Assembly (NCBI GenBank): GCA_965195285.1
Contig: CBDAFS010000016.1
Location: forward strand, 1-14,132
Length of the DNA stretch: 14,132 nucleotides
Origin: an uncultured Aminicenantes bacterium
Lineage (GTDB): Bacteria > Acidobacteriota > Aminicenantia > UBA2199
Reading direction: 5' to 3'
This document shows positions 1 through 14,132 of the stretch, one piece after another. How positions within the stretch are numbered: position 1 is the stretch's first letter; every line of letters begins with the position of its first letter. Position numbers and translations under genes: made by a program. Below the pieces are notes generated by a model that was given only the letters and a program-made list of their open reading frames with translations, had not been told where the DNA came from and ran no database searches.

Positions 1-351
1 CTGTTCAAACGGCCCGCCTCTACCGAACTCAGTTCTCAGATCAGCACCACCGGTATGATCACCACCAAGCTGACCGAGAAACTGGAAAAGCGGGTTAAAA
101 AAATATTCGGGATCGATATGCTGAAATTCGATCCCATGATCACCGGGACCTCGGTGGAGGCCGAATCCCGACTCAGCGTGGGCAAGGCCATTGCCAAAAA
201 CTTCATCATTGTGTATTCTACCAATGTTTCCACCTTAAGACAGGAGATACTCTATCTTCTCTACCAGATATCTCCCTCCATATCCATCATCGGCATGAGA
301 AATGAAGAAGGACGGTACAGCATTGACATTCGATTCCGGAAAAGGCGCTAA
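1..351 (+). CDS. tamB: 3' end of a TamB/DUF490-like translocation and assembly module protein (5'-truncated by the window)
   Basis: Frame 1 is open from base 1 to the stop at 349-351. The C-terminus (FGIDMLKFDP...RLSVGKAIAKNFIIVYSTNV...LYQISPSISIIGMRNEEGRYSIDIRFRKRR) has the alternating beta-strand pattern typical of TamB C-termini. It lies directly upstream of an Omp85 gene. Confidence 0.75.
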   Translation: MFKRPASTELSSQISTTGMITTKLTEKLEKRVKKIFGIDMLKFDPMITGTSVEAESRLSVGKAIAKNFIIVYSTNVSTLRQEILYLLYQISPSISIIGMRNEEGRYSIDIRFRKRR

Positions 352-3019
352 GACCCTGGTCCTGGTCCTGCTGCTGGTTTCCCTGATCCGCAGCCAGCCA
401 GCCCCTGGATTCCATGTCAACCAGATTATTTTTCAATTCAACAACAGCTTCGAACAACGGAACATCAACAAGTACAAATCCCTGATCAATATCAAGGAGG
501 GACAGCCATTCAGCCGCAAAAAAATCCGGGAGAGCCTGGAAAACCTCTTTAAAACCGGATCCTTTTCCCATATCGAGGCCCGCATCCAGAAACTTTCGGA
601 CCGGAAAATGGATATCTATTTCGTCACCCGCAACAAGTACATCATCAAATCCATCTCCATCATCCAGAGCATCACCCAGAAAAAGAAGGGGATCAAGAAG
701 GCCATCTATTCCCTGAACGAAAACCAATACCTGGAAGAATCCCGAATCCCCCTGGCCATCCAGGAACTGAAAGATTTTCTGAGATCAAGGGGATACAACC
801 ATCCGGAAATCCAGTACCGGGTGAAAAAAAACCCACGCAACCTTACCGTTGCCCTGAAATTCATCATCCTGAGCAATAAACTGACCGGGATCAACCGGTT
901 GACCCTGACCGTGGACAATCCGGACCAATGCCCGGAATTCATCGGGCAGTTCAACACCAATCACTATATTCCTTACAAATTTCAGAAAAGCCTGGAAAAG
1001 GTCCGCAGCAAACTGAAAAAGCTACGCTATTATTTCCCGGAGATCCGGGTCCAGGAAACCTACCTGAATGAACAGCGTTCTCAGGTTGATCTGGACATCA
1101 TCCTCGACCTGGGATACAAGCATATTTTCATTTTCCAGGGTATGAAACAGAAGATGAACCTGATCTCCTCCATCTGGGAAGAAAAGGTCTATGAAAAGTG
1201 GGCCCTTAATGCCAGTGAGACCCGGATTCTGAACTATCTGAAAAACAAGGGTTATCTGAATGCCCGGGTAAGTTCCGGCATCCGGATCAATAATTCCACC
1301 AAGTTCATTACCTTTATCGTGGAGAAGAACAAAAAATACAGCCTGGGCAAGATTGATTTCCAAGGCAACACCGCTTTTTCCAAGGACAGGCTGAAACAGG
1401 TCATGAAAACCGATGACCTCATCTATGATCGGATCTTCGAATTGAGATCCGACTCCATTGCCCTGGACCTGGAAATCCTGAAACTGCTCTACTATTTCAA
1501 TGGCTACCCCCTGAGCAAGATTACCATGGAACCGGAATTTCGCCACCGCAAAGCCGATCTTAATTTTATCATCCAGGAGGGTCAGAAATTCAGGGTGGAT
1601 TCCATCCTGTTTGAAGGCAACCAGACATTCCCGGCCAGGAGACTCCTGGAGGTTATTTCCAGCCGGGAAAACCAGGCCTTTGTTCAGCAGAACTTCAACC
1701 GGGATATAGAGAAGCTGAGGAATTTTTACCTGGAGAACGGGTTTGATGATATCCGGATCGACCTGGATATTTCGGCTGGCCACAACAAATCCATTATGGT
1801 CAAGATTAACGAGGGCAAACCCTACCGGATGTGGAACCTGATGATCATTGGCGCCTCCAAATCCCAGTCCCAATTGCTGCGCAAATTGTTTCCGCTGAAG
1901 AAAAATGCCAATTACAACCAGAATCAGATCACTCAGTTCAAAACCCGGGTGGAAAACACCTCGATATTCAACGAGGTCAACATCATCAAATTAAAAAAGG
2001 ATCCGAACCTGATGGATGTATTGATCATGGTCATCCCGGACAACAGCCGCTACTACGGTTTCGGGATTGGCTGGGAGGACCGTAAATATTTCAGGGGCTC
2101 CCTGGAATACCAGGCACGTAACATATTCAAATCCTATTCCACCCTGTCCGCCATCCTGCAGATCGGTTTCAGCGAAAAGCGGGCCGTGCTCAGCTATGAT
2201 ACCCCCTATTTTTTGCGCACCAGCCTGAGCTCCTCCTTCAAGATCTGGGATGAGGATGAAATTTACCCCAGCTATAAATTTAACCGCTACGGCCTGGGTG
2301 AATCCATCATCAAGAAAATCAGCCCGAATTCCTTTATCATGGCTTCCCTGAACTGGTACCGGACCAAGCTGACCGAGCTGTTGGTCAGCGAACAGGGCAT
2401 CGATCAACTCGATGTTCCCTTTGATACCACCGTGATTTCACTTTTCTATGTGATAGAAAAAAGGGATGATCCCTTCAATCCCCTTACCGGTGACTTTTTT
2501 TCCTCCAACCTAAAAATCGGACTACCCCTGTTTGAAAAAGACTACAGCTTTTTCAAGTTTTTCTGGAGCTACCAGAAAAACATCCGGCTCTTCAAACGCT
2601 CCAGCCTTTCATTTTCGGTGCGCAACGGGTTTTCAGCCGGGGACATGTCCATTACCGAGCGCTTTTTCGCCGGCGGTGTACACAGTTTTCGCGGGACCCG
2701 AAACGACCGCCTGGGCCCTCTGGATCCCGAGACCGGTAAGCCCCGGGGGGGAAATGCCCTGCTGCTGTTCAATCTGGAAGCCACCTTTCCCGTCATCGCC
2801 ATTCCCATCGAAGACCTGTACTATTCGGTCTTTGCCGATTTCGGCAATGTGTTTGACAGTACCAGTGACCTGAGTTTAAACAATCTGGAAAAAGCGATTG
2901 GTTTCGGCCTCAAATACAAGACCCCCTTTGGACCTTTGCGGGTGGACCTGGCCTGGAACCTGAATCCGGATGTCGGGGATCGCTTCCTGGTCCAGATAGG
3001 AATAGGCAATGTCTTTTAA
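302..3019 (+). CDS. Omp85 family outer-membrane assembly factor (BamA/TamA type) with multiple POTRA domains
   Basis: 905 aa with a hydrophobic N-terminal stretch. POTRA-like repeats include IKEGQPFS...LFKTGSF, IDFQGNTAF...GY and ILFEGNQTF...YLENGF. Barrel motifs include ERFFAGGVHSFRG, FADFGNVF and GFGLKYKTPFGPLRVDLA, and the protein ends in Phe. The exact start is uncertain because it overlaps tamB. Confidence 0.93.
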   Translation: MKKDGTALTFDSGKGAKTLVLVLLLVSLIRSQPAPGFHVNQIIFQFNNSFEQRNINKYKSLINIKEGQPFSRKKIRESLENLFKTGSFSHIEARIQKLSDRKMDIYFVTRNKYIIKSISIIQSITQKKKGIKKAIYSLNENQYLEESRIPLAIQELKDFLRSRGYNHPEIQYRVKKNPRNLTVALKFIILSNKLTGINRLTLTVDNPDQCPEFIGQFNTNHYIPYKFQKSLEKVRSKLKKLRYYFPEIRVQETYLNEQRSQVDLDIILDLGYKHIFIFQGMKQKMNLISSIWEEKVYEKWALNASETRILNYLKNKGYLNARVSSGIRINNSTKFITFIVEKNKKYSLGKIDFQGNTAFSKDRLKQVMKTDDLIYDRIFELRSDSIALDLEILKLLYYFNGYPLSKITMEPEFRHRKADLNFIIQEGQKFRVDSILFEGNQTFPARRLLEVISSRENQAFVQQNFNRDIEKLRNFYLENGFDDIRIDLDISAGHNKSIMVKINEGKPYRMWNLMIIGASKSQSQLLRKLFPLKKNANYNQNQITQFKTRVENTSIFNEVNIIKLKKDPNLMDVLIMVIPDNSRYYGFGIGWEDRKYFRGSLEYQARNIFKSYSTLSAILQIGFSEKRAVLSYDTPYFLRTSLSSSFKIWDEDEIYPSYKFNRYGLGESIIKKISPNSFIMASLNWYRTKLTELLVSEQGIDQLDVPFDTTVISLFYVIEKRDDPFNPLTGDFFSSNLKIGLPLFEKDYSFFKFFWSYQKNIRLFKRSSLSFSVRNGFSAGDMSITERFFAGGVHSFRGTRNDRLGPLDPETGKPRGGNALLLFNLEATFPVIAIPIEDLYYSVFADFGNVFDSTSDLSLNNLEKAIGFGLKYKTPFGPLRVDLAWNLNPDVGDRFLVQIGIGNVF

Positions 3020-3671
3020 AATAACCGTCTTGATTTTATTATATTTGTGTCTCCCGGTCCGGGCCGAACCCGTGTTGATCGATCAGATCGCTGCCGTGGT
3101 TAACGATGAGATCATCACCCTCAGTGACATCCAGAAGGCCATCATGCTCTACCCGCTCTTCCGGGACAAGAATGAAAACGAGAAAGACTTTCAAAAGCGG
3201 GTCCTGCTCAGTTTAATCAACCACAAGGTTATCTATCATGAATACCGGGATGAATTCCGGCTGAGCGAGGAGGACTATGAGGAGGTCCAGATCCTGGTGA
3301 TCAAAAAAATCGGATCACTCGGTGAACTGATGATCCTGCTCCGCCATTATGATATGGACTGGCCGGATTTCAAGCAATTTATCATTGAAAAAGTGGTGTA
3401 TGAAAAAGTGCTCAACGATCAATTTTCCACCAAAATCACCATCCCCTATGCGGAAATTCAGAAATTTTACAACCAGGAATACCTCCCGGTGCAGCAGAGA
3501 CTGGGATTGCAGGCCAGATCCCTGATCGAAATGACCCCCCTGATCGAAAAACACCTGAGTAAGAAGCTCACCGATACCCGGCTGAAAGCCTGGTTGAAGG
3601 ATATCAAGACCATCTACCGCATCGAAAACCTTCTCTTTCAGGAAAAGGGCGGTCCGGAGGAATCCAGATGA
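3009..3671 (+). CDS. SurA N-terminal-domain-like periplasmic chaperone, no obvious PPIase domain
   Basis: Signal peptide followed by the IDQIAAVVNDEIITLSDI motif typical of SurA N-domains, and a C-terminal WLKDIK...IE. Overlaps the Omp85 stop. Confidence 0.75.
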   Translation: MSFKITVLILLYLCLPVRAEPVLIDQIAAVVNDEIITLSDIQKAIMLYPLFRDKNENEKDFQKRVLLSLINHKVIYHEYRDEFRLSEEDYEEVQILVIKKIGSLGELMILLRHYDMDWPDFKQFIIEKVVYEKVLNDQFSTKITIPYAEIQKFYNQEYLPVQQRLGLQARSLIEMTPLIEKHLSKKLTDTRLKAWLKDIKTIYRIENLLFQEKGGPEESR

Positions 3672-4639
3672 ATCTTTTTAACGAATATCAGCAAAAGCTT
3701 ATTGAATCCCTGAAGCCCGGCGACCGGGTCAGGAATGTCTTTAAGGTTCTGGAAATCCAGAAACGAACCAAGAAAAACGGGGAACCTTTTTTATCCCTTG
3801 AATTGAGGGACCCCACCGGAAAGATCGGGGCCAAGATCTGGAGCCAGGTGGACACCCACCTGTCTATGATCCGGGCCGGGGAGTTCTACCGGTTCAGCGG
3901 TACCGTAAACGAGTACCAGAACCAGCCTCAGCTCAAGATCGAATCCCTGAACCCGGTGGCTGCGGATGACCCGGAGGTGAACCGCTCTGATTTCGAAGAA
4001 CAGGCCCCCTTTGACGTGGAAAAGGATTTTCAGGATATGCTGGATACCCTGAAGGCTGCCATCCTCAATCCCTTTTTGATCGGCCTGCTCGATATTTTTG
4101 AGGAAAAATACCGGCAGGTCTTTCAGCAACACTACGGGGCCCAGAAAATCCACCATGCCTATGCCGGCGGCCTGCTGGAACACACCCATTCGGTGATCCG
4201 GCTGGCCATCCTGATCGCCGATTTTTACCGGCTGGACCGGGAATTGTTAGCCATAGGAGCCCTGTTTCACGATATTGGCAAGCTGATGGAATTTACCCGC
4301 TCACCAGCCGTAGAGACCACTCCCGAGGGCGGCCTGATCGGCCACATCGTTCTGAGCAACCAGATCTTCCTGGAGCTCCAGGGCCAGGTAGAAAACTTTC
4401 CCTCCGATCTTTCCCTGCAGATCCGGCACCTGATCGTATCCCACCACGGCGAAAAGGAATTCGGTTCCCCGGAAGTTCCCAAAACCCCGGAAGCCTTTGT
4501 CCTGCATATGATCGACCTGCTGGATTCCAAGCTGAAAATATTCCGGGAAGCCATCGATGCGGCCGATGCCAACAGCCGGTTTTCGGAGTACCACCGTATC
4601 CTGGGCCGGCGCCTGTTCGTTCCGGAAGAGAAAGATTAA
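3668..4639 (+). CDS. yhaM: YhaM/Cbf1-family 3'-5' exoribonuclease (OB fold plus HD domain)
   Basis: OB fold segment TKKNGEPFLSLELRDPTGKIGAKIW, then HHAYAGGLLEH, LFHDIGK, LIGHI, SHHGEKEFGSP and DLLDS motifs. ATGA overlap with the upstream gene. Confidence 0.88.
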   Translation: MNLFNEYQQKLIESLKPGDRVRNVFKVLEIQKRTKKNGEPFLSLELRDPTGKIGAKIWSQVDTHLSMIRAGEFYRFSGTVNEYQNQPQLKIESLNPVAADDPEVNRSDFEEQAPFDVEKDFQDMLDTLKAAILNPFLIGLLDIFEEKYRQVFQQHYGAQKIHHAYAGGLLEHTHSVIRLAILIADFYRLDRELLAIGALFHDIGKLMEFTRSPAVETTPEGGLIGHIVLSNQIFLELQGQVENFPSDLSLQIRHLIVSHHGEKEFGSPEVPKTPEAFVLHMIDLLDSKLKIFREAIDAADANSRFSEYHRILGRRLFVPEEKD

Positions 4640-4650
4640 GTTCAAAATTC

Positions 4651-4677
4651 GAGGTTGAGGTTAAGGCTGAGGTTAAG
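4651..4677. repeat. Degenerate hexamer tandem patch (GAGGTT/AAGGCT)
   Basis: gaggttgaggttaaggctgaggttaag. The same family occurs inverted at 5120-5145 and direct at 8352-8377. Confidence 0.8.
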
Positions 4678-4687
4678 TAAAACGTAA

Positions 4688-5005
4688 ATGGACACTCTGA
4701 AACCTCGCTGCCCTTACTGCAGGTCCGAGCGGATTCTTCCCTTTGAGGAGGACAGCGGACCGGACCGGAACGATACCTTTCTGATCATCTTCCTGTCGGC
4801 CTTCCTGCTGGTGGGATTCTATATTTTGTTTGTGCTGCTTTCCTATATGTCCTACCCTATCATGGTCATCATACTGGTGGCCCTCTCCTCCTGGCTGCTG
4901 AACCGCAAGGAACGAAGAAAGCAGAAACCGGGAATCATCCGGGAAAAGGACTTCCTCTGTAGCGATTGCGGACAGGAATTCAGAGCCCAGGTTGAGGAGA
5001 AGTAA
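4688..5005 (+). CDS. Small membrane protein with a split zinc knuckle (CPYC ... CSDC) around two hydrophobic helices
   Basis: Two CxxC pairs flank about 40 hydrophobic residues followed by a basic stretch. The ORF fills an otherwise intergenic space. Confidence 0.75.
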   Translation: MDTLKPRCPYCRSERILPFEEDSGPDRNDTFLIIFLSAFLLVGFYILFVLLSYMSYPIMVIILVALSSWLLNRKERRKQKPGIIREKDFLCSDCGQEFRAQVEEK

Positions 5006-5081
5006 GCTCAGGAGACAGAAGATAGGAGACAGAAGACAGAATATAGAAGTTATGAAGATGGGAAGTTAAGAAAAAACTTTA

Positions 5082-5145
5082 CACTTTACGCCTTCACGCC
5101 TTACGTCTAACGTCTTTATCTTAACCTTAGCCTCAACCTTAACCT
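5082..5145 (-). repeat. Composite intergenic repeat, inverted copy of 8352-8407
   Basis: The reverse complement matches 8352-8407 with 2 substitutions and one extra 8-bp unit (GAAGGCGT). Confidence 0.9.
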
Positions 5146-5160
5146 GAAAATCGGGTGTAC

Positions 5161-5189
5161 TTGTATTTCCTTCTGAACTTCTATAAAAT
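5161..5189 (+). promoter_or_regulatory. Putative sigma70 promoter, near-leaderless transcript
   Basis: TTGTAT-17 bp-TAAAAT ending 8 nt before the ATG at 5198. No clear Shine-Dalgarno. Confidence 0.5.
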
Positions 5190-5197
5190 GTTGGATA

Positions 5198-7228
5198 ATG
5201 AAAATTCCGGCAGCGGTGTCACTTCTCCTGCTCTCCCTCTCCCTGTTCTGCCAAAACAGCGGCAAAACCCTCAAGGCAACCCGGGTCGATGAAAAAACCA
5301 TCCAAGTAGATGGAAAACTGGATGAAGCGGAATGGAAACTAGCCCCGGTGGCCGGACAGTTCATCCAGTTTGAGCCCCGGCTGGGAGAACCGGCTGAATT
5401 CGATACCCGGTTCCGGGTACTCTATGATGATCATTACCTGTACGTGGGCGTTTCCTGTTTCGATCAGGAGCCGGATAAAATCGTCTCCCGGGTGACCAAG
5501 CGCGAAGGTCCCCTGGATACCGATGACTCCATCGGCTTCGGCCTGGACACCTTTGGCGACCGTCGTACCGCCTATGCTTTTTTCACCAATATCCTGGGCA
5601 CCCAGCTGGATGGCCGTCTGAGTGATAACGGCCGCACCTGGGATACCACCTGGGACGGGGAATGGAAGTCGGCGGGCAGCCGTACCGATTCCGGCTGGAC
5701 CGCTGAATTTGCCATTCCTTTCGCCAGCCTGAAATTCAATCCCGGCATAAACCGAACCTGGGGCTTCGGCCTGGTCCGGTTTATCCCCCGCAGCCTGGGG
5801 GCCGATACCTGGACCGGTCCGGTGGAAGATTTCAAACGGGTGAGCCAGTTCGGAACCCTGACCGGTCTCAACCTGAAAACCTCTAAGAAAAAATACCAGA
5901 TCATCCCCCATGTGATCGCCAAATTCGAAGAGGACCAAAAGGCCCAGGTAGACTTCGGCCTGGATCTCCGCTATGCCTTTTCCCAGACCGTATCGGCCAA
6001 CCTGACCGTAAACCCGGATTTTGCCATTATCGAGGCCGATGAAGAGGTCATCAACCTCACCCGCTTCGAGACTTATTTACCGGAAAAACGCAATTTTTTT
6101 TTAGAAGGCTCGGAAATCTACAGTCAGCGAATCCGGCTCTTCTACTCGCGTCGCATCGAAGACATCTACGGGGGCCTGAAGGTCTATGGAAAATTAGGCA
6201 AATACGAGATCTCTTTCCTGACCGCCCAGAGCAAGCCCGGAAGCGATCCCGATGATCTGTCAGCCAATTTCACCGTATTCCGCCTGCGCCGGGATATCTT
6301 CAAATCCTCCAATATCGGCTTCTTAGTGGCCAACAAGCATGTCGATGGCCTGAGCCAGGGCAGTATGGGGCTGGATGTGTTGCATTTCTTCTCGGAAAAG
6401 GTCCATTTTACCGGACAATTCTGCCTGAGCTACGGAGAGGAAAATCATCAGAACCTGGCTTTTTTTCTGCGGCCCAGCTACGACACCTCCACTTTTCACA
6501 TCCACCTCCGCTACTCCCAGATCGGTGAAAATTTTGCCGACAATGCCAACTCGATGGGCTACATCACGGATGATGACCGGCGTGAACTGGACTCCTACGT
6601 GACCAAGATCTGGTGGATCAAGAAGCACGGTATCGAGCGGTTTGAATACAGCTCCAACTACAACATTTACTGGAGCATTCAGGGCGAGCTGCGCAGCTGG
6701 GAAATCTTTCAGGAAATCGAACTGGACCTCAGCAATAAATTCTCCCTGGAAGTCAATTATATCAACGATTATAAACTCTATGAAAAGGAATTTCACAACC
6801 ACCGCACCATTTTCGAACTCGGCTACAACACCCGGGAGTGGCAGTCGGCCTTTGTAAGCTATTCCTTTGGCCGCAATTTCGATTCCGACCTGCAGTTATT
6901 CGGCGGGGGAGTTCATCTCAAACTGCTCAAATCCCTGTCCCTGGAGTACAGCCTGAACCGGCTGATCCTGGACCCGGACCCGGACCTGGAGACCAAGTGG
7001 GTCCACATCCTCCGGCTCACCAACTATTTTACCCCGAACCTGTACCTGAAATTCTTCTACCAGAGCAATTCGGCCATCAGCAAACAGAACATCCAGCTGG
7101 TATTTGTCTACCGCTACCAGCCCCCCTTCGGCACCGTCCAGTTAGCCTACCAGAAGGGCACGGGTGACATCGGAGAAGAATCCGACCAGGGCCATACCTT
7201 ATTTGTAAAGGTATCTTATGTGTTTTAA
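5198..7228 (+). CDS. CBM9-like domain plus DUF5916-type outer-membrane beta-barrel protein
   Basis: Signal peptide. N-domain motifs VDGKLDEAEW, LYDDHYLYVG and GWTAEFAIPFASLKF resemble CBM9/DOMON-like domains. NPDFAIIEAD and NLTRFETYLPEKRNFFLEG are typical of this family. The protein ends in the aromatic VKVSYVF. Confidence 0.82.
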   Translation: MKIPAAVSLLLLSLSLFCQNSGKTLKATRVDEKTIQVDGKLDEAEWKLAPVAGQFIQFEPRLGEPAEFDTRFRVLYDDHYLYVGVSCFDQEPDKIVSRVTKREGPLDTDDSIGFGLDTFGDRRTAYAFFTNILGTQLDGRLSDNGRTWDTTWDGEWKSAGSRTDSGWTAEFAIPFASLKFNPGINRTWGFGLVRFIPRSLGADTWTGPVEDFKRVSQFGTLTGLNLKTSKKKYQIIPHVIAKFEEDQKAQVDFGLDLRYAFSQTVSANLTVNPDFAIIEADEEVINLTRFETYLPEKRNFFLEGSEIYSQRIRLFYSRRIEDIYGGLKVYGKLGKYEISFLTAQSKPGSDPDDLSANFTVFRLRRDIFKSSNIGFLVANKHVDGLSQGSMGLDVLHFFSEKVHFTGQFCLSYGEENHQNLAFFLRPSYDTSTFHIHLRYSQIGENFADNANSMGYITDDDRRELDSYVTKIWWIKKHGIERFEYSSNYNIYWSIQGELRSWEIFQEIELDLSNKFSLEVNYINDYKLYEKEFHNHRTIFELGYNTREWQSAFVSYSFGRNFDSDLQLFGGGVHLKLLKSLSLEYSLNRLILDPDPDLETKWVHILRLTNYFTPNLYLKFFYQSNSAISKQNIQLVFVYRYQPPFGTVQLAYQKGTGDIGEESDQGHTLFVKVSYVF

Positions 7229-7327
7229 GGTTCCGGGGGTCGGAGATCGGAGATTCTAACCCTCTCACTCTTTCACCTCAATCTTAATCTGAGATAAAGG
7301 TAGAGGTAAAGGTAAAGTCAAAAAATG

Positions 7328-7458
7328 GGCAGGCGTAGCAAACCATCTCCGGAACGGCTTGTGAAACCATTTTCTCGAATATCGAAAAATGGTGGAACGC
7401 TCCCAAAAATGAGAGCATTTTTGGGTAAAGTGAAGGAGATTGTTTGTGAAAGCCTGCC
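7328..7458 (+). ncRNA. Candidate structured RNA, copy 1 (four stems, three-way junction), family not recognised
   Basis: P1 GGCAGGC 7328-34 with GCCTGCC 7452-58; P2 7338-50 with 7435-47; P3 7366-7393; P4 CCCAAAAATG-AGAG-CATTTTTGGG 7402-7425. Compensatory changes relative to copy 2. Confidence 0.7.
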
Positions 7459-7520
7459 GGTGGATGGGATTTGCCCAAATATGAATCCGAATATTAAATA
7501 AAATATCAATTCAATTACTC

Positions 7521-7544
7521 GGGCGAATTGCCATTCGCCCCTAC
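7521..7544 (-). repeat. GTAG-type REP-like palindrome
   Basis: The minus strand reads GTAG-GGGCGAAT-GGCA-ATTCGCCC, a GTAG tetranucleotide abutting a perfect 8-bp stem. Confidence 0.65.
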
Positions 7545-7650
7545 AGTTTACCAATTACTATTCAATAATTACGACGTACGCCTTACGTCTTTATCTCCAG
7601 CTAAACCTCTACTATCGGTTTATAGATGACTGATTTAAATTATTGGCGGC

Positions 7651-7851
7651 TTACAACTTGGTGACGTTGGCTGCCTGGTCGCCTTTGGGGCCGCTTTTGA
7701 CCTCAAATTCAACCTCATCACCTTCATCCAGGGCTTTGTATCCCTCGCCCTTAATTTCAGAATAGTGAACAAACAAGTCGTTCCCTTCATCTGTCTCAAT
7801 AAAACCAAAACCTTTTCGGCGGTCAAACCATTTTACTTTCCCTTTGGGCAT
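7651..7851 (-). CDS. csp: Cold-shock domain protein (CspA family)
   Basis: GKVKWF, RNP1 KGFGFI, RNP2 LFVHYS and KGDQAANV motifs. AAGGAGG ribosome-binding site. Confidence 0.97.
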
Positions 7852-7933
7852 AATCTACTGCCTCCTTGTTAAAAATAACTAGGAAATAAAAGAAGAATGG
7901 AAAACAATTTCTACCCTTATTTACTAAAAACAA

Positions 7934-7962
7934 CCTATAGCATACTTATTTTTCGAAGTCAA
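7934..7962 (-). promoter_or_regulatory. Putative sigma70 promoter for csp at 7851
   Basis: TTGACT-17 bp-TATAGG with an extended -10 TG. The -10 is imperfect. Confidence 0.45.
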
Positions 7963-7981
7963 GAAATATAAAAAACGGGGG

Positions 7982-8182
7982 TTAGGTCTTTACGACGTTG
8001 GTGGCCTGGTCGCCCTTGGGGCCTTTCTTGATCTGAAATTCGACTTCCTGATCTTCATCCAGCGAGCGGTATTCATCGCCCTGAATCTCGGAATAATGAA
8101 CAAAAACATCATTTCCGTCTTCATCCTGGATGAAACCAAAACCCTTGCGGTTGTCAAACCATTTAACTTTTCCTTTTGGCAT
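7982..8182 (-). CDS. csp: Cold-shock domain protein (CspA family)
   Basis: Same RNP1/RNP2 motifs. ATG at 8182 is preferred over TTG at 8188 from AAGGAGG spacing and the MPKGKV start shared with the paralogues. Confidence 0.97.
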
Positions 8183-8291
8183 AATCAAGTTCCTCCTTGT
8201 AAAAATTGATCATTAATTCGGGTGAATCGATTATACCGGGGGTAATAGATTACCAAAGGATAACAAATTCTCTCCCAATTGATGAATAAAA

Positions 8292-8320
8292 ATCATAGCA
8301 TGTTTCAGCAATGCTGTCAA
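8292..8320 (-). promoter_or_regulatory. Sigma70 promoter for csp at 8182
   Basis: TTGACA-17 bp-TATGAT with an extended TG. Implies a 5' UTR of about 100 nt, as is usual for csp mRNAs. Confidence 0.75.
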
Positions 8321-8351
8321 GCAGATGTGCTGGCTTCTGAGGTAAAAGATT

Positions 8352-8407
8352 AGGTTGAGGTTGAGGCTAAGGTTAAGATAAAGACGTGAGACGTAAGGCG
8401 TAAAGTG
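8352..8407 (+). repeat. Composite intergenic repeat, inverted copy of 5082-5145
   Basis: aggttgaggttgaggctaaggttaagataaagacgtgagacgtaaggcgtaaagtg. Confidence 0.9.
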
Positions 8408-8415
8408 AAAAAATG

Positions 8416-8544
8416 GGCGGGCGTAGCAAACCATCTCCGGAACGGCTTGTGAAACCAATTTCTCGAATATCGAAAATTGGTGGAACGCTCCCAAAAATGA
8501 GAACATTTTTGGGTAAAGTGAAGGAGATGTTGCGAAAGCCCGTT
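8416..8544 (+). ncRNA. Candidate structured RNA, copy 2
   Basis: Near-identical to 7328-7458. The differences preserve pairing (A-U to G-C, U-A to A-U, G-C to G-U, G-U to G-C) or fall in a loop or bulge. Confidence 0.7.
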
Positions 8545-8591
8545 ATAGCATAAGAAATATTAACTGAAGGAACCGGGCGAATCGCTTAATC

Positions 8592-8789
8592 TTATCCTGA
8601 GATTAAGTTTTTGCTTTCTTGTTCTTGATCTCCGGATTCACTCTCCGGTTCGGTTTCGGTGTTCTGTATTTCCGATCCCTCGGTTTGAGACTTCTCTAAT
8701 TTCCTGAGTCTCTTTTTTTCCTGTTTTTTTTGACGATTGAGCTCTTTTCTTCTTTTTTCCGCTTTGAAAGAACGGTTACCTTTTCCCAA
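8592..8789 (-). CDS. Small Lys/Arg-rich then acidic hypothetical protein
   Basis: TTG start with AAGGAGG upstream. Basic helical N-half (KRRKELNRQKKQEKKRLRK) and acidic tail. Co-oriented just downstream of the RRM gene. Confidence 0.75.
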   Translation of the reverse strand: MGKGNRSFKAEKRRKELNRQKKQEKKRLRKLEKSQTEGSEIQNTETEPESESGDQEQESKNLISG

Positions 8790-8836
8790 TTTTAATTTGC
8801 CTCCTTATTGCCGCATCAACCGGGTCGACCGGTCCC

Positions 8837-9100
8837 TCAGCGGCGAAAATTTCGTCCCCGGCGGGGAGCCGGGGGTTTGGCCTCATTGACCTTTAACTGG
8901 CGGTCCTTGAAATCAAAACCATCCAGTTTTTCCTTGGCGTTTTCGGCTTCGGCCTGGGTGGACATTTCCACAAAACCGAACCCCTTGCCTTCTATTAACT
9001 TAACACTTTCGATGCTGCCGTATTCTGAAAACAACGTTTCAATATCTTTGTTAGTGGTTGTATAATGCAGATTGCCAACATAGAGCTTACTGCCGTGCAT
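8837..9100 (-). CDS. RRM (RNP-1) RNA-binding protein
   Basis: RNP2 KLYVGNL, RNP1 KGFGFVEM, LKVNEAKP and an Arg-rich tail. GAGGAGG ribosome-binding site. Confidence 0.95.
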   Translation of the reverse strand: MHGSKLYVGNLHYTTTNKDIETLFSEYGSIESVKLIEGKGFGFVEMSTQAEAENAKEKLDGFDFKDRQLKVNEAKPPAPRRGRNFRR

Positions 9101-9147
9101 TCGGACCTCCTCGACCCATTCTTCATCAGCTTCCGGGATGAAAAGTT

Positions 9148-9176
9148 ATTATAACATAGAGATTCTCTGAGGTAAA
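9148..9176 (-). promoter_or_regulatory. Extended -10 promoter for the RRM gene
   Basis: TGtTATAAT, with the hexamer at 9153-9148. A weak -35 TTTACC lies 17 bp upstream. Confidence 0.65.
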
Positions 9177-9268
9177 GAGTTAGGTAAAGGTAAAGTCAAA
9201 GGTAAATGAAAGACGTAATTGGTAATTCGTGAATAGTAATTGGTAATTAGTGATTGGTAATTCGGTTG

Positions 9269-9346
9269 TTACTTTCTCACTGTCTCACCTTTTCACTTTC
9301 TCACCTAAATCTGAGGTAAAGAAAAGACGAAAGTCGTAATTGGTGA
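9269..9346 (+). repeat. 78-bp direct repeat, copy 1
   Basis: Matches 10674-10751 at 75 of 78 positions. Confidence 0.92.
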
Positions 9347-9371
9347 CTGGTGGCTGCCATCCCAAATCCCC

Positions 9372-10539
9372 CTACTCCTTCTTCCGGGTATAAACCATAT
9401 CCCCGGAATGCAGATAAATCCGGTCGCCGCCCATAAGCATTCTTATATTTGAAAAGACAACCGGAAGGCTCCTGGAGCGGATCAGATCCGGTCCGTTGTT
9501 TACGGAAAAATGGAGATGGGGCTCGGTGCTGTTGCCCGAATGGCCCACCGAGGCGATCACCTGTCCCTGTTCCACCCGTTCTCCCTTTTGTACCCGGATG
9601 CTACCCTGTTTCAGATGTCCATAAAACGAATATTCCCGGTCGCTGTGCCGGATGACAATGGTATTGCCGGAGATGCCTGCCGGATTTTCTTTCAGAAATT
9701 TCATCTGGGTCACGGCCACCCGGGCGTCGTAGGCCTCATCGGATTCACCCGCTCTCTTCAACGAACGATTGTCGTCGGCCAAACCGGCCAGAGCCCGCAC
9801 CACTTCTCCGCCGGCAACCGCCACCACCTCCCGGTTGAAACAGTAATAGTCCTCAACCCGTTCACCGGTTCCTTGAAAGGTTTTGCCAGCGGTGCCCGCT
9901 CAGAGCATCGCCCGACGATGCTACATACCAGGTTCCCCGAACCGGAAATATATAGGTATTGGCCTGCTCATATTTGCTCACTTCCAACCGGATCTCGGCC
10001 TTCACCGGCTTTCCGTCCGGCCGTTTACCCGAAAATCGAATGATCACTCCGTCGGGCATTCCCCGGAAGGTCAGATAGTGCCACATGGACAGGATTCCAG
10101 TGTTGGGCTGCAGTTCAGTGGACGGAGACAGCCGGTCGCCCTCCTTCATCATCCGGCTGATGCCCAGAAAGGGATCGTATAATTTCAATAATCCCTTGCT
10201 CTCAAAAGCCTGCATCCGCCCGGCCGACTGCTCGAGATCCCGGCGGCTGGTATAAACCGACTGAAGAACCTGTTGGTCATCGACCGGTTCGATCACCAGC
10301 TTTTCCAGGGTGACGGACGCGCCGGACCGGTTGAGGCAGATGATATTCTGAATCAACAGATTGTAATAACCCCGCCGGCTGTTGGTTTCAAACAGGTAAA
10401 CCCGCTTTTCCGGACTGGTCCGGATCTCCAGGGCCGGTTCCCCCCCAGCCAAAAAGGGGCTGAACAATAGAAGAACCATCAACAACCAAATTCCCTGATC
10501 TTTGACACGTATTGGAAAAAATCGTTTTAGTTTTATCAT
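9372..10539 (-). pseudogene. M23-family metallopeptidase, frameshifted near 9886
   Basis: The 5' ORF has a signal peptide and FPVRGTWYV...GHRW. It continues in another frame as GKTFQGTGERVEDYYCFNREVVAVAGG...GNTIVIRH...YGHLKQGS...GHSGNSTEPHLHF, which carries the M23 HxH motif. CAGGAG ribosome-binding site upstream of 10539. Confidence 0.85.
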
Positions 10540-10673
10540 TTCGACTCCTGTTAATACCTACGTTCTCTGAAGTAATAAAGTTGATGAATTATCCAATTTG
10601 AGGTAAAGATAAAGGTAAAGAAAAAGTTGAATTTAGGGTCTAGTGGCTTGTGAATGGTGACTCTCTCACCGTC

Positions 10674-10751
10674 TTACTTTATCACTGTCTCACCTTTTCA
10701 CTTTCTCACCTAAATCTGAGGTAAAGGAAAGACGAAAATCGTAATTGGTGA
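10674..10751 (+). repeat. 78-bp direct repeat, copy 2
   Basis: Matches 9269-9346 at 75 of 78 positions. Confidence 0.92.
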
Positions 10752-10829
10752 TTAGTAAAGTGTGAAGTTCGGAAATCGGATTTCGGGATTGGGGCCCGGG
10801 GGCCAGAAGCTGAGGTAAAGGTCCTCCCC

Positions 10830-10858
10830 TTGAAATCCAATAAAAAATATGATATACT
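10830..10858 (+). promoter_or_regulatory. Sigma70 promoter for csp at 10969
   Basis: TTGAAA-17 bp-TATACT with an extended TG. AT-rich 5' UTR of about 105 nt. Confidence 0.7.
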
Positions 10859-10968
10859 TATTTTTAAGAAAATAAGGGAGAGAATTTTTTATTCACAGTA
10901 ACTCAGTTTACCTTGCTTAATCAATTCATCCATTATTTATTTGAAATCTAAAAAGGAGGAACTTGATT

Positions 10969-11172
10969 ATGCCAAAAGGTAAAGTTAAATGGTTTGACAA
11001 CAGCAAAGGCTACGGCTTTATCCAGAGTGAAGACGGTAATGATGTGTTTGTTCATTATTCTGAAGTTCAGGGCGATGATTATCGCAAATCTTTGGATGAA
11101 GATCAAGAAGTTGGATTCTCGATCAAGCAGGGTCCCAAGGGCGACCAGGCTGCCAACGTCGTTAAATTGTAA
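10969..11172 (+). CDS. csp: Cold-shock domain protein (CspA family)
   Basis: GKVKWF, KGYGFI and VFVHYS motifs. The leader AAGGAGGAACTTGATT-ATG is identical to that of the csp at 8182. Confidence 0.96.
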
Positions 11173-11195
11173 AATCTAACCGACAACAATAAAGG

Positions 11196-11240
11196 GGCCC
11201 GGGAATATCCGTCAAACGATATCCCGGGCCTTTTTTTTTT
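11196..11240 (+). terminator. Rho-independent terminator
   Basis: GGCCCGGGA...TCCCGGGCC stem followed by ten T, directly downstream of the csp gene. Confidence 0.9.
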
Positions 11241-11283
11241 GCCTGCGCCAAATCCTCACGGGCGTAACAAACCATCTCCGGAT

Positions 11284-11889
11284 TTAAGAATTTTCCAGAA
11301 TGATATCGCCGGCTATACAGACCGCCTTTTTAATAACTTCCATACATTTGTTGTTTTTTTGCGATGCTTCCATGAATAACTTTTTTTCTTCCGGATTGAG
11401 GAAATCATAAGAGCGCCCATATTGATGCTTCAATACTCCCTTGCATCTGGTTGAGCCAAATGCGTTAGTAAATCTATCAAAAAACAATCCTGCATATTTA
11501 AGTGAGGAACCGGCCTTTGCCATTTCCTGTTGATTGTTTGGTTCGAACACAAATCCCATGGCGAGTAAAGATCCGGATACAGCCCCGCAGGTCTCTCCTC
11601 TCATGGCAACCCCGCCGGTGAAGGGCATCAGGGCCCGGAGTGCTTGATCGCCTTTCAGTTTGAATTGTTCATTCAGCGCGGCAAAACTGCCGACAGCACA
11701 GCTTCTGTACATGGGCATGTATTTAACTGCCTTTTCCTCAAGTTCCTTTAATATTTCTTCTTTTGGTTTATCCCCTTTTTCAGCCATCACCCCGGATATG
11801 ATTCCCGGAAATGCCAGTAAGGCCAAACCGGCCGTACACCCGGCACTCTTGCAGAAAAATGTCCGCCGGTCCATTGTTTTCTGATCCAT
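11284..11889 (-). CDS. C-GCAxxG-C-C family putative redox protein with a twin-arginine signal
   Basis: SCA, GETCGAVSG, STRC and KC cysteines. Start set at 11889 from GGAGGAGG. DRRTFF followed by a hydrophobic stretch resembles a Tat signal. Confidence 0.85.
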   Translation of the reverse strand: MDQKTMDRRTFFCKSAGCTAGLALLAFPGIISGVMAEKGDKPKEEILKELEEKAVKYMPMYRSCAVGSFAALNEQFKLKGDQALRALMPFTGGVAMRGETCGAVSGSLLAMGFVFEPNNQQEMAKAGSSLKYAGLFFDRFTNAFGSTRCKGVLKHQYGRSYDFLNPEEKKLFMEASQKNNKCMEVIKKAVCIAGDIILENS

Positions 11890-12068
11890 GCGTTCCTCCT
11901 CCAAGTATTTTACTGTTTCGTATACGAAATGGGAAGGGGCAGAGTTCAAAACGCTTAAATATATGGCACCCAACCATAGTTCAAAGCTCAGTTTCCGGAG
12001 GTCGGGGATCGGAGGTCGGAGATAGATATTAATGCCGGGAGATGCTGTTCATTCAGCATTTAATAATG

Positions 12069-12261
12069 ATACCAGCCGTTCATGATACGCTCGCCCGTCC
12101 GGTAATTGACCGGAATACGAACTCGTCTCACTCAAAATGTCCAACTCGGCCTTCGGCCTCAGACAGAGACATTTTGCCCCCTGAAGACGGGAAGGTTCGA
12201 CTCGTTCTCGCCGGCACCCAATTCCCTCCCTGAGGCTCGCGTTACCATGAACGGCTGCTAT
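12069..12261. repeat. Long nested-palindrome element (MITE/REPIN-like or structured RNA)
   Basis: Perfect 12-bp inverted repeat CAGCCGTTCATG 12073-84 with 12246-57. Inner stems TCCGGT/ACCGGA, CAAAATGTC/GACATTTTG and GGCC-TTC-GGCC. Confidence 0.6.
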
Positions 12262-12375
12262 TTTATCTAATTGAATGCCGGGTGACTGGGTGAGGGAACG
12301 TAAACGGAGGGGATGGGCACCATCGCATATGGGGCTGCGTCAAAACCTCCGATCCCCGAACTCCGACCTCCGAAA

Positions 12376-13644
12376 CTATTGTATGGTCAACACATGGGGG
12401 ACTTCCCAGTTCTCGGAGTGGAAGCGAGTGTCGTACTCCAGCTTTTTCAGATCGGCCCGGGAGGTCCAGATGGAGAGGGTGGTTCCGAATCTCGCCTGGA
12501 TCGAGCAGACTACCTCCCAGAATTCCTCCATGTTGGTTACTCCCAGGGCGCACAGATCCGTGGCCCGGCGGAAGCGGGTGCAATTTTGATACAGGTAGTC
12601 CGGCCCCTCCAGAAAGGCGGTGTTGGTCATCACCTGGTAGCATTCCGTGGTAGGAAACACGTGGAGTTTCTTATCCCGGTCAAACTCGATCACCACCGAT
12701 CGCCCGGAAGCATCGGCGATGAGGAAGTGCTGCAGCTCGTCCGGAAACCAGATCCTGACCTTCCGGATCAGGGCCAGGGCCTCTTCCACGGTAGCGCAGC
12801 AGTCCAGGATCACCCGGATCAGGCGGGGCGAGCAGATGGCCGCCACCTGGGGATAGGGCTCCTCGTCGTAACTGGTGTACTCCGGGGGTAAAATATTGCT
12901 GGCAATGGCCATGAACAGGCCCCTCTCGTTGATGCCGTCCATGATCTTGTTCTGCAGCTGGTAGCAGGTCATGCCCACCGAGCGGTAAACCCCGCTCAGG
13001 TTGGAGACCACCTGGAAGTGGGGCCGGTCGTCGTAGATGTCGAAGTTTCTTCCCGTCAGCATGCGCTGCTCTTCTTCTATATAATAGGAGATCACGCTGC
13101 AATTTTCCGTTGAGGTCGAGGAGGTGAAGCGGGTCAGTCTCAGGAAGTCGTCGTAGCGGAAAAGCTCCCACCAGAGCCGGCCGGCGAACCAGTCCTCGAT
13201 GTTGCGCAGGTCCAGATTCTCCAGATTCTGGGAATAAGCCCAGGCAATGCCCCGGGCCCGTTCCAGGAAGGGGGGAAAGAATTTCCCATACATCGCCTCA
13301 ATTTTTTCGTTGATCTCCCGGCTTTCCTCGGTGCGCAGGGTGGGATAAATGCCCTGCTTACGGGCCATCAGCCCCAGCCACTTGCCCACATCCCGGTAAC
13401 TGCCCTGAAAAGTGATCTTCTTGGGAAAAAGCCCCGGCGAGATCTCCTCGTAAATAGCCACGTTTTTCCCCAGCTCGGCATTGGTATTGGCCAGAAATAC
13501 TTTAAACAGGTCATCATAGGTTTCATACAGTTCCCGGATTTCCTGCTCCCGGGCCTCCCTCTCATCCTGATTCCGGCTCCAGGAGGTTTCGCAAAAGCAC
13601 AGGGTTAGGGTCAGTAAAATAATTAATATATATTTTTTTGTCAT
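12376..13644 (-). CDS. Secreted Ntn-fold cysteine hydrolase (C45 acyltransferase / linear amide C-N hydrolase-like)
   Basis: Signal peptide. Internal nucleophile-type ENCSVI followed by LTGRNFD, DGINERGL, HFLIADASG and MTN. Confidence 0.85.
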   Translation of the reverse strand: MTKKYILIILLTLTLCFCETSWSRNQDEREAREQEIRELYETYDDLFKVFLANTNAELGKNVAIYEEISPGLFPKKITFQGSYRDVGKWLGLMARKQGIYPTLRTEESREINEKIEAMYGKFFPPFLERARGIAWAYSQNLENLDLRNIEDWFAGRLWWELFRYDDFLRLTRFTSSTSTENCSVISYYIEEEQRMLTGRNFDIYDDRPHFQVVSNLSGVYRSVGMTCYQLQNKIMDGINERGLFMAIASNILPPEYTSYDEEPYPQVAAICSPRLIRVILDCCATVEEALALIRKVRIWFPDELQHFLIADASGRSVVIEFDRDKKLHVFPTTECYQVMTNTAFLEGPDYLYQNCTRFRRATDLCALGVTNMEEFWEVVCSIQARFGTTLSIWTSRADLKKLEYDTRFHSENWEVPHVLTIQ

Positions 13645-13682
13645 TTTATATATAATACGGATTTCAGAGCTTTAATTGGAGA

Positions 13683-13944
13683 TTGTCAGGGAGAGCTCTC
13701 TTTAGTTTGTCATTAAGAACTATCAGAGCTTGTCATTAAGAACTTTACTGAGTTGGTCATTACATCTCTCTGAAACTTGTCAGGAAGGGATGAATTGAGC
13801 TTGTCATAATAGATCTTTTTGTCTTGTCATTACGACTCTTATGAATTTGTCATTGAAGCTCTATGTAAATTGTCATTGAAATTCAAAAAAGCTTGTCATT
13901 ACAGATCAAAAAAATTTGTCATAACAACTCTCTTTATATTGTCA
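13683..13944. repeat. Phased array of 12 TTGTCA(T/G) boxes with 23-24 bp period and variable spacers
   Basis: Boxes start at 13683, 13707, 13730, 13754 (TGGTCA), 13777, 13801, 13824, 13847, 13870, 13893, 13916 and 13939. Confidence 0.92.
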
Positions 13945-14004
13945 GAAAAAGAATTATTTACAAGCTCGGTTAGCTCTTTATGGCAATCTCCAGTAATCAC
14001 TTAA

Positions 14005-14100
14005 TGACAAGAACTGTTGAGCTCTTCCTGACGTTCACATAGTGAACTTATGACGCAACCTTCGGTTGCTAATGACGCTCACGAAGTGAGCAAATGACAA
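14005..14100. repeat. Inverted-orientation TGAC boxes separated by triloop hairpins
   Basis: TGAC at 14005, 14029, 14051, 14073 and 14095. The last three intervals each hold a perfect 6-bp stem with a 3-nt loop. Confidence 0.88.
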
Positions 14101-14132
14101 GTTCGATTAGATATTAAATAGGCTGGTCATTA

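Follow-up and report, generated by a model that had tools for sequence, protein, structure and literature searches.

Miniature inverted-repeat transposable elements (MITEs) are short, non-coding, multicopy and intergenic, and are known for bursts of near-identical copies that break assemblies and for the truncated remnants that they leave. The REP/REPIN-RAYT, ERIC, BOX and Correia-type repeats are likewise dispersed in intergenic DNA, can fold, persist within lineages and are often co-transcribed with adjacent genes; all of these are simple palindromes or hairpins. Another pattern is provided by the QUAD/Sib repeats of E. coli and by Qrr, where each genome holds several paralogues of about 100-140 nt in unrelated spacers. 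The element described here resembles each of these groups in the properties just listed, but it differs from the REP-like repeats in forming a three-way junction in which unpaired bases are conserved. Two full copies and one truncated copy occur in a stretch of 14,132 nt (contig CBDAFS010000016.1, positions 1 to 14,132; hereafter the window) from an uncultured member of Candidatus Aminicenantes. The 3.28-Mb genome that holds the window is designated G000, related genomes carry other G-numbers, and f1 denotes the family of G000 within Candidatus Aminicenantes.

We consider it probable, with room for doubt, that this is a MITE-like structured element, new, non-autonomous and restricted to one family, which depends on its fold for spreading, either as RNA or as single-stranded DNA. 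The argument begins with the two full copies of the window, copy A at 7328-7458 and copy B at 8416-8544, both on the plus strand and about 131 nt long. An initial annotation, made by reading the sequence alone, had pointed to these two look-alike copies, with similarity beginning at 7313 and 8401, and repeat analysis located them identically. A direct-repeat tool aligned 129 nt of them at 96% ungapped identity, and model-based alignment gave 92.6%. With R1, a covariance model built from G000's own copies, they score 162.2 and 154.7 bits. Both minimum-free-energy folds reproduced the architecture predicted at the outset, in which P1 and P2 lead to a junction bearing P3 and P4. The calculated energies are -58.1 kcal/mol for copy A (z = -6.3) and -53.2 for copy B (z = -5.9), and not one of 200 shuffled sequences was as stable. 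The opposite strand also folds, less stably (-50.6 and -45.4 kcal/mol), so that the plus strand is favoured by about 7.5 kcal/mol.

The core, about 110-135 nt long (about 230 nt where terminal extensions occur), consists of the closing helix P1, a long P2 stack with purine-rich internal loops, and a three-way junction that carries the hairpins P3 and P4. In copy A, P1 pairs 7328-7334 with 7452-7458, P2 pairs 7338-7343 with 7442-7447, and P2a pairs 7345-7350 with 7435-7440. An internal loop follows, with GGA (7351-7353) facing GAA (7432-7434), and then the short P2b (7354-7355 with 7430-7431). The base of P3 is formed by 7356-7358 with 7399-7401 and by 7361-7362 with 7397-7398, and P3 itself by 7366-7378 with 7382-7393. 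P4 pairs 7402-7411 with 7416-7425 around the loop AGAG, and the strand UAAA (7426-7429) completes the junction. Copy B has the same architecture, and covariation supports these pairs. The initial annotation had not described a further helix at the base of P3, which shows the pairings GU/AC, CU/AG, CA/UG and CG/CG when the ten full G000 copies are compared by eye. An alternative exchange of partners between P3 and P4 can be seen by eye in copy A and is not kept in other subfamilies. As a separate observation, some copies in G000 (contig C31), G001 and G002 have an additional hairpin of 50-60 nt inserted in P3.

The individual substitutions that had first suggested a conserved structure proved to be real and recurrent. 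The change of A7331-U7455 to G-C corresponds to a column pair (10/187) that is GC in seven copies and AU in three, and that of U7370-A7389 to A-U corresponds to a column pair (98/117) divided evenly, five UA and five AU. A G-U pair of P2 becomes G-C (column pair 17/179), two G-C pairs of P1, the outer ones, become G-U in copy B, and the P4 loop changes from AGAG to AGAA. The Shine-Dalgarno-like AAGGAG said to be sequestered in P2 lies inside the P2a helix. Across the ten G000 copies, double changes were found at 10 of the 38 predicted pairs.

Larger alignments, which the initial annotation had proposed as a check, gave strong covariation in both forms that were built. The first was fitted to a covariance model and contains 38 sequences from at least 12 genomes and 48 pairs. 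In it, 88.7% of cells are paired, compared with 34-45% when the partners are slid by one to three columns, and changes on both sides occur in 42 of the 48 pairs. Its covariation score is 0.477, compared with 0.07-0.10 for the slid partners, and was reached by none of 500 shuffles; the alignment is biased in the model's favour at 38 of the 48 pairs. The second was a structure-blind MAFFT alignment of 39 cores, in which 79.5% of cells are paired (compared with 35-50%), double changes occur in 34 of 41 pairs, and the score is 0.387 (compared with 0.07-0.18). The fold is therefore strongly supported by covariation across at least 12 genomes, which as kin are not independent of one another. Furthermore, several unpaired or junction bases are nearly invariant across family members, and one G-U pair is kept in 27 of the 38 sequences of the model-fitted alignment.

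The element is a multicopy family within its own genome, a state not apparent from the window alone. Searches with blastn and R1 found 10 full copies and three fragments in G000, forming two subfamilies of 80-90% similarity. Copy A has 92.6% identity to copy B, no more than to a copy on contig C30 (93.4%) or to one copy in another species (94.1%), and the two copies in the window are therefore not the product of a local duplication. Truncated copies retain the 5' end. One of these is a third copy in the window, missed by the initial annotation, at 11259-11282 on the plus strand; it belongs to repeat family D12 (blastn E = 0.005-0.008) and consists of only the 5' 24 nt, that is, the 5' strands of P1, P2 and P2a. 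It lies about 87 nt after csp3, just past the csp3 terminator, and runs straight up to the stop codon of a convergent gene (11284-11973). Another lies at C55:31393-31432. The 13 copies and fragments are genuinely clustered: the window alone has three, in a span of about 4 kb, and its long spacers, rich in other repeats, offer the best explanation. No reading frame on either the plus or the minus strand is consistently open in all copies, and neither strand keeps a conserved small open reading frame; base composition alone leaves every minus-strand frame open in many copies. In G001, a diverged type-B variant stands head-to-head beside standard copies at two loci (L033, G001:C146:225-664, and L050, G001:C22), with up to three elements in a row.

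Among relatives, the element is restricted to one family of Candidatus Aminicenantes. R1 detected it in 22 of 71 other f1 genomes and, counting G000's own, in 8 of 18 genera; outside f1 it detected none in 24 genomes of a class sample or in 146 of a phylum sample. A broader covariance model, R3, found it in 30 of 65 other f1 genomes and in none of 85 genomes belonging to 11 further families of the class. (A further model, R2, was based on an RNAalifold structure with only seven pairs and was left unused.) The model E-values are rough, speed filters may lose weak matches, and the genome sets are samples; moreover, most relatives are represented by fragmented metagenome-assembled genomes, where assembly recovers too few repeats. 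Copies per genome by R3 range from one to at least 25, a top value limited by the scoring cap, with at least 25 in G009 and G002, 21 in G001, 16 in G024 and 14 in G087. The distribution is patchy even among well-assembled genomes of one genus: G087 has 14 R3 matches, G086 has one, and G035 and G017 (93% and 97% complete) have none.

Evidence that copies change position comes from comparisons among these relatives. The G002 genome contains about 42 near-identical copies, many of them at contig ends, and the repeat unit there extends past the core to terminal inverted repeats of about 21 bp. The left-end motif of this unit occurs 42 times at no more than two mismatches in G002, and only at control level in G000, G001 and G003. 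No solo end was noted in G002, which is 70% complete; the left-end motifs that were checked against core matches sit just upstream of the core. Inverted terminal extensions are also found in G005 and part of G092, with sequences unlike those of G002. The initial annotation had conceded that dozens of dispersed copies with target-site duplications would mark the sequence as a MITE. Such copies are indeed dispersed in relatives, with terminal inverted repeats in G002, whereas target-site duplications were not found.

Filled and empty sites could be recognized at several orthologous positions. Three G002 copies (L068, L080 and L051) correspond to empty sites in G000, and one G087 copy occupies a spacer of 225 nt for which G085 has no counterpart, the two flanking genes abutting there; another G087 copy is shared with G085. 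None of four G001 copies examined occupies the site of a G000 copy. The copies on G000_C10 and G001_C181 are 96.9% identical at non-orthologous loci, compared with 74.6% for the DNA around them. Contigs of a DNA-like run, their depths summed, cover the element about 4-7 times as deeply as its flanks, which fits a repeat and gives no copy number. A side observation concerns L034 (G003:C48), the single copy in G003, whose flanks are split in G000 between C55:29888-31434 and C30:33463-34932; at C55:31393-31432, G000 retains the first 40 nt of a copy only. Either the repeat mediated a rearrangement, or one of the assemblies contains a chimeric join.

The best way to account for these patterns is a process in which copies relocate and amplify, so that their number and location shift between close relatives, bursts occur and truncated copies remain behind. 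A factor supplied in trans would recognize the folded form for propagation, and that form would most likely be the plus-strand RNA, or else single-stranded DNA. Recognition of the fold is suggested because the fold and several unpaired junction bases have been kept, through compensatory change, across genera. The fold would be retained because spread, or some function linked with spread, requires it.

Several observations weigh against this interpretation. The terminal inverted repeats vary by lineage, are absent beyond the 7-8 bp of P1 in the window copies and in 10 aligned G087 copies, and may simply be longer P1 stems. The genomes with filled and empty sites differ by 13-35% in their flanks, so deletion is possible, and at copy ends or in filled/empty pairs a target-site duplication could not be read, the genomes being too diverged to fix the ends. 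The strand evidence is thin once the conserved G-U pair is set aside (54 G-U/U-G cells compared with 42 A-C/C-A cells), and the conserved unpaired bases would equally suit a host RNA. A transcript of the window's own copies was not found in RNA-library contigs; contigs break at repeats, and this absence proves nothing. Searches for a partner enzyme (TnpB, reverse transcriptase and Y1) yielded none. TnpB (PF07282) was found in none of five carrier genomes by a search that found 8 of 14 controls, and reverse transcriptase (RVT_1) in one of the five (G005), adjoining no copy, so there is no retron pattern. Finally, the flanks of 15 G000 Y1 genes have no significant similarity to the element, the nearest copy being 3.4 kb away.

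The strongest competing explanation, which we regard as unlikely but worth serious attention, holds that the copies are genes for multicopy trans-acting small RNAs or protein scaffolds that serve the host, with ordinary gene turnover accounting for the distribution and a cellular function for the retention of the fold. Strong covariation and unpaired junction bases conserved across genera are what such RNAs would show, and the boundaries of the element coincide with P1 both in the 10 aligned G087 copies and in G000. A diverged family member is also present in contigs of two RNA libraries from one study, where DNA carry-over is possible. The libraries touch the window element only through a 36-nt match that belongs to this diverged member; their contigs cover csp2-csp1 (one contig of 712 nt, 7473-8184) and the RRM gene. 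AT-richness marks the 17 nt immediately preceding P1, but no -10-like box (TANNNT) stands at a fixed distance in 48 copies, no consensus promoter lies upstream of either window copy on the plus strand, and no terminator is common to the copies; by eye, an AU-rich hairpin followed by a T-run can be seen about 30 nt after copy B, at about 8576-8605. Nor does the distribution fit well, with the element found in just 30 of 65 family genomes and patchy within genera, its sites not conserved between congeners, and bursts of about 42 near-identical copies. CsrA (PF02599) was found in none of five carriers, which argues against a sponge of the CsrB/RsmZ type, and Hfq was matched weakly and in one genus only.

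A distinct structure in the window also deserves mention. The hairpin GGGCGAATTGCCATTCGCCC at 7521-7564, together with its 3' flank, matches RNA-library contigs with a high summed depth (160 in X16); the sequences are unlike on both sides. A related motif is found at 8555-8585, after copy B, and this hairpin probably represents another small repeat family.

A less likely proposal still is that the fold acts as single-stranded DNA, as a recombination or transposition site for an HUH/Y1-type enzyme comparable to REP/RAYT, the ends of IS200/IS605 or attC, with no need for RNA. Y1_Tnp genes are certainly common, being found in 68 of 72 family genomes, and G000 has 17-20 paralogues of about 300-326 amino acids that are IS200/RAYT-like (on contigs C8, C9, C12, C14, C15, C21, C26, C27, C30, C31, C46, C47, C49, C50 and C61). 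The lack of any promoter or terminator signal attached to the element suits this proposal, as does the weak strand bias, since the one conserved G-U could equally be G-T. The failure to see a target-site duplication also suits it; absence of such duplications is usual for enzymes of this type. However, no Y1 gene is flanked by the element; many of the G000 Y1 genes have their own inverted repeats of about 30 nt (GGGTGACGGTGCTTGACA...), which are unrelated to it, and genomes that lack the element have Y1 genes as well. In addition, the hairpins typical of such sites are simpler than a three-way junction whose purine-rich internal loops are conserved, and the attC boxes (RYYYAAC/GTTRRRY) do not fit the element by eye, the copies moreover being solitary.

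Slightly further down the scale, and in our judgement improbable, is the idea that the three-way-junction RNA is itself an orphan mobile RNA gene, whose transcript would guide, scaffold or catalyse insertion together with a protein encoded elsewhere. Bridge RNAs, omega RNAs and the ribozyme-bearing retrozymes are comparable in spirit; the fold found here is new. Orphan copies of transposon RNAs (HEARO/IscB omega RNA, TnpB omega RNA and IS110 bridge RNA) resemble the element in being structured, linked to mobile DNA and present in many copies without a neighbouring protein gene. They differ in that the element lacks a match in Rfam, which includes a HEARO model, in that TnpB is missing from the five carriers, and in that no recombinase adjoins the copies examined (IscB and IS110 were not searched for directly).

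The genes around the copies bear on the earlier proposal that the element is linked to cold shock. The window contains three of the five csp genes of the genome, at 7651-7851 (-), 7982-8188 (-) and 10963-11172 (+), and one of its three RRM genes; clustered with the csp genes, at 8837-9100 (-) and 8592-8789 (-), are this RRM gene and an open reading frame for a 65-residue Lys/Glu-rich protein with no Pfam match. The csp2 promoter is near consensus (TTGACA-17-TATGAT, 8320-8292, minus strand). In G000, only the copies in the window are near csp or RRM genes, and the other eight full copies are beside unrelated housekeeping genes in every orientation, their neighbours including SpoIIE, DUF4340, OsmC, a GAF-HD protein, a radical-SAM enzyme, a metallo-beta-lactamase, BcrAD/HGD-D and UPF0102. 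Among the 10 G000 copies and 19 copies in relatives, there is no common class of downstream gene on the same strand, and all orientations occur. No transposase is found next to the copies examined in G000 and relatives. A crude tally of 20 copies gave 7 in convergent, 4 in divergent and 7 in co-directional settings, with no clear pattern, and is unreliable in such GC-rich DNA. The location near csp genes is incidental. An RNA linked to csp, acting as a leader or thermosensor or else as a ligand or decoy of the neighbouring Csp and RRM proteins, is very improbable, since despite a clustering far above an even spread (three of 13 copies or fragments less than 4 kb from three of five csp genes and one of three RRM genes), the three window copies differ in their orientation relative to csp, none is placed between the promoter and the start codon of a csp gene, the eight other full copies and all relatives' copies examined are beside unrelated genes, and the csp loci of the congeners G001 and G002 have no copy. 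What endures of the initial annotation is thus a real, conserved, structured non-coding element without an Rfam match; a tie to csp, RRM or temperature sensing is not supported.

The spacers that hold the element are filled with other repeats. Purine-rich hexamer arrays lie on the plus strand directly 5' of both full copies: a (AAGGTA)n-like array at 7288-7318 (repeat families D3 and D5, also reported by a tandem repeat finder) precedes copy A, and an array at 8336-8405, detected by repeat analysis and located between the element and the divergent csp2 promoter, precedes copy B. It is uncertain whether these arrays belong to the element. Strict hexamer arrays number 24 in the genome, three of them directly 5' of subfamily-1 copies, and inspection of the alignment by eye finds such a 5' array at all six subfamily-1 copies. 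Similar (AGTGAC)n arrays are found upstream of element copies in G087, which belongs to another genus. More generally, purine-rich tandem arrays with a period of 6, 7, 12 or 14 and their pyrimidine-rich complements fill the spacers of the window, often as inverted pairs around a feature. Besides those named above, they occur at 4651-4677, 5092-5145 (minus strand), 9166-9208 and 10599-10627, with further arrays at 9215-9262, 9269-9351 and 10660-10756; the segments 5092-5145 and 8352-8405 are 94% complementary (inverted repeat I5).

A second, unrelated MITE is present at 12071-12262. It is about 190-210 bp long, has clear terminal inverted repeats (CAGCCGTTCATG ... CATGAACGGCTG), and in the window is bracketed by inverted 14-nt arrays at 11996-12023 and 12347-12374. 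It is found 10-130 nt 5' of all four G000 subfamily-2 copies, and likewise in G001, and it is also found alone, as in the window and at C30:~53845-54091. At 13694-13944, close to the end of the window, a 23-nt unit with the core TTGTCAT(T) is repeated in tandem about nine times, resembling iterons or an array of binding sites.

The initial annotation could not match the element to a known riboswitch family, and comparison with catalogued families agreed with this. Rfam 15 gave no match in the window at gathering score and none on the element at E<=10, and diverged members from other genera gave chance-level matches only, far below gathering score. No match to the element was found in phage and plasmid collections. 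A loose DNA pattern picked out at least 118 stretches in genome contigs, of which R1 confirmed 1 of 100 and then 0 of 18 loci, and 35 stretches in viral contigs, of which it confirmed none; the pattern is weak and its matches were almost all due to chance. No publication on the element was found in the literature on non-coding RNA of Aminicenantes, and a broader literature search returned general motif-discovery papers and nothing on the element; the supplements of those papers could contain an unnamed motif from the lineage.

The element is a new and well-supported addition to the structured non-coding families, from a sediment lineage that has not been cultivated. If its fold is the substrate or the agent of mobility, it would point to an undescribed transposition or RNA-protein system. 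Repeats of this kind also have practical consequences: they break assemblies, they may join unrelated flanks in metagenome-assembled genomes, and they can be mistaken for gene-specific regulators, as happened with the csp genes here.

Set against the described systems, the element recalls the cspA thermoregulator (RF01766) in its position near csp genes in the window. The weak matches to that model (41.7 and 33.4 bits, compared with a gathering score of 78), the sole Rfam signals of this region, fall on the minus strand over the csp genes and their own leaders, not on the element, which lies outside the csp 5' untranslated regions. The QUAD/Sib and Qrr families keep their loci among relatives and have their own promoters and terminators, whereas the sites of the element move and no such signals were found. 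REP/REPIN-RAYT systems pair their repeats with a RAYT-like Y1 gene, and no Y1 gene here has the element at its flanks. The parallels with MITEs include the terminal inverted repeats of G002, G005 and part of G092 and the filled and empty orthologous sites. The element departs from MITEs in having neither a target-site duplication nor a parent transposon that could be found, and in having inverted repeats that are lineage-specific or absent; it conserves an internal fold rather than its ends, and a passive MITE would not be expected to show covariation across genera of the kind found here. What sets the element apart among bacterial interspersed repeats is that an elaborate fold, together with its junction bases, is conserved in place of the ends.

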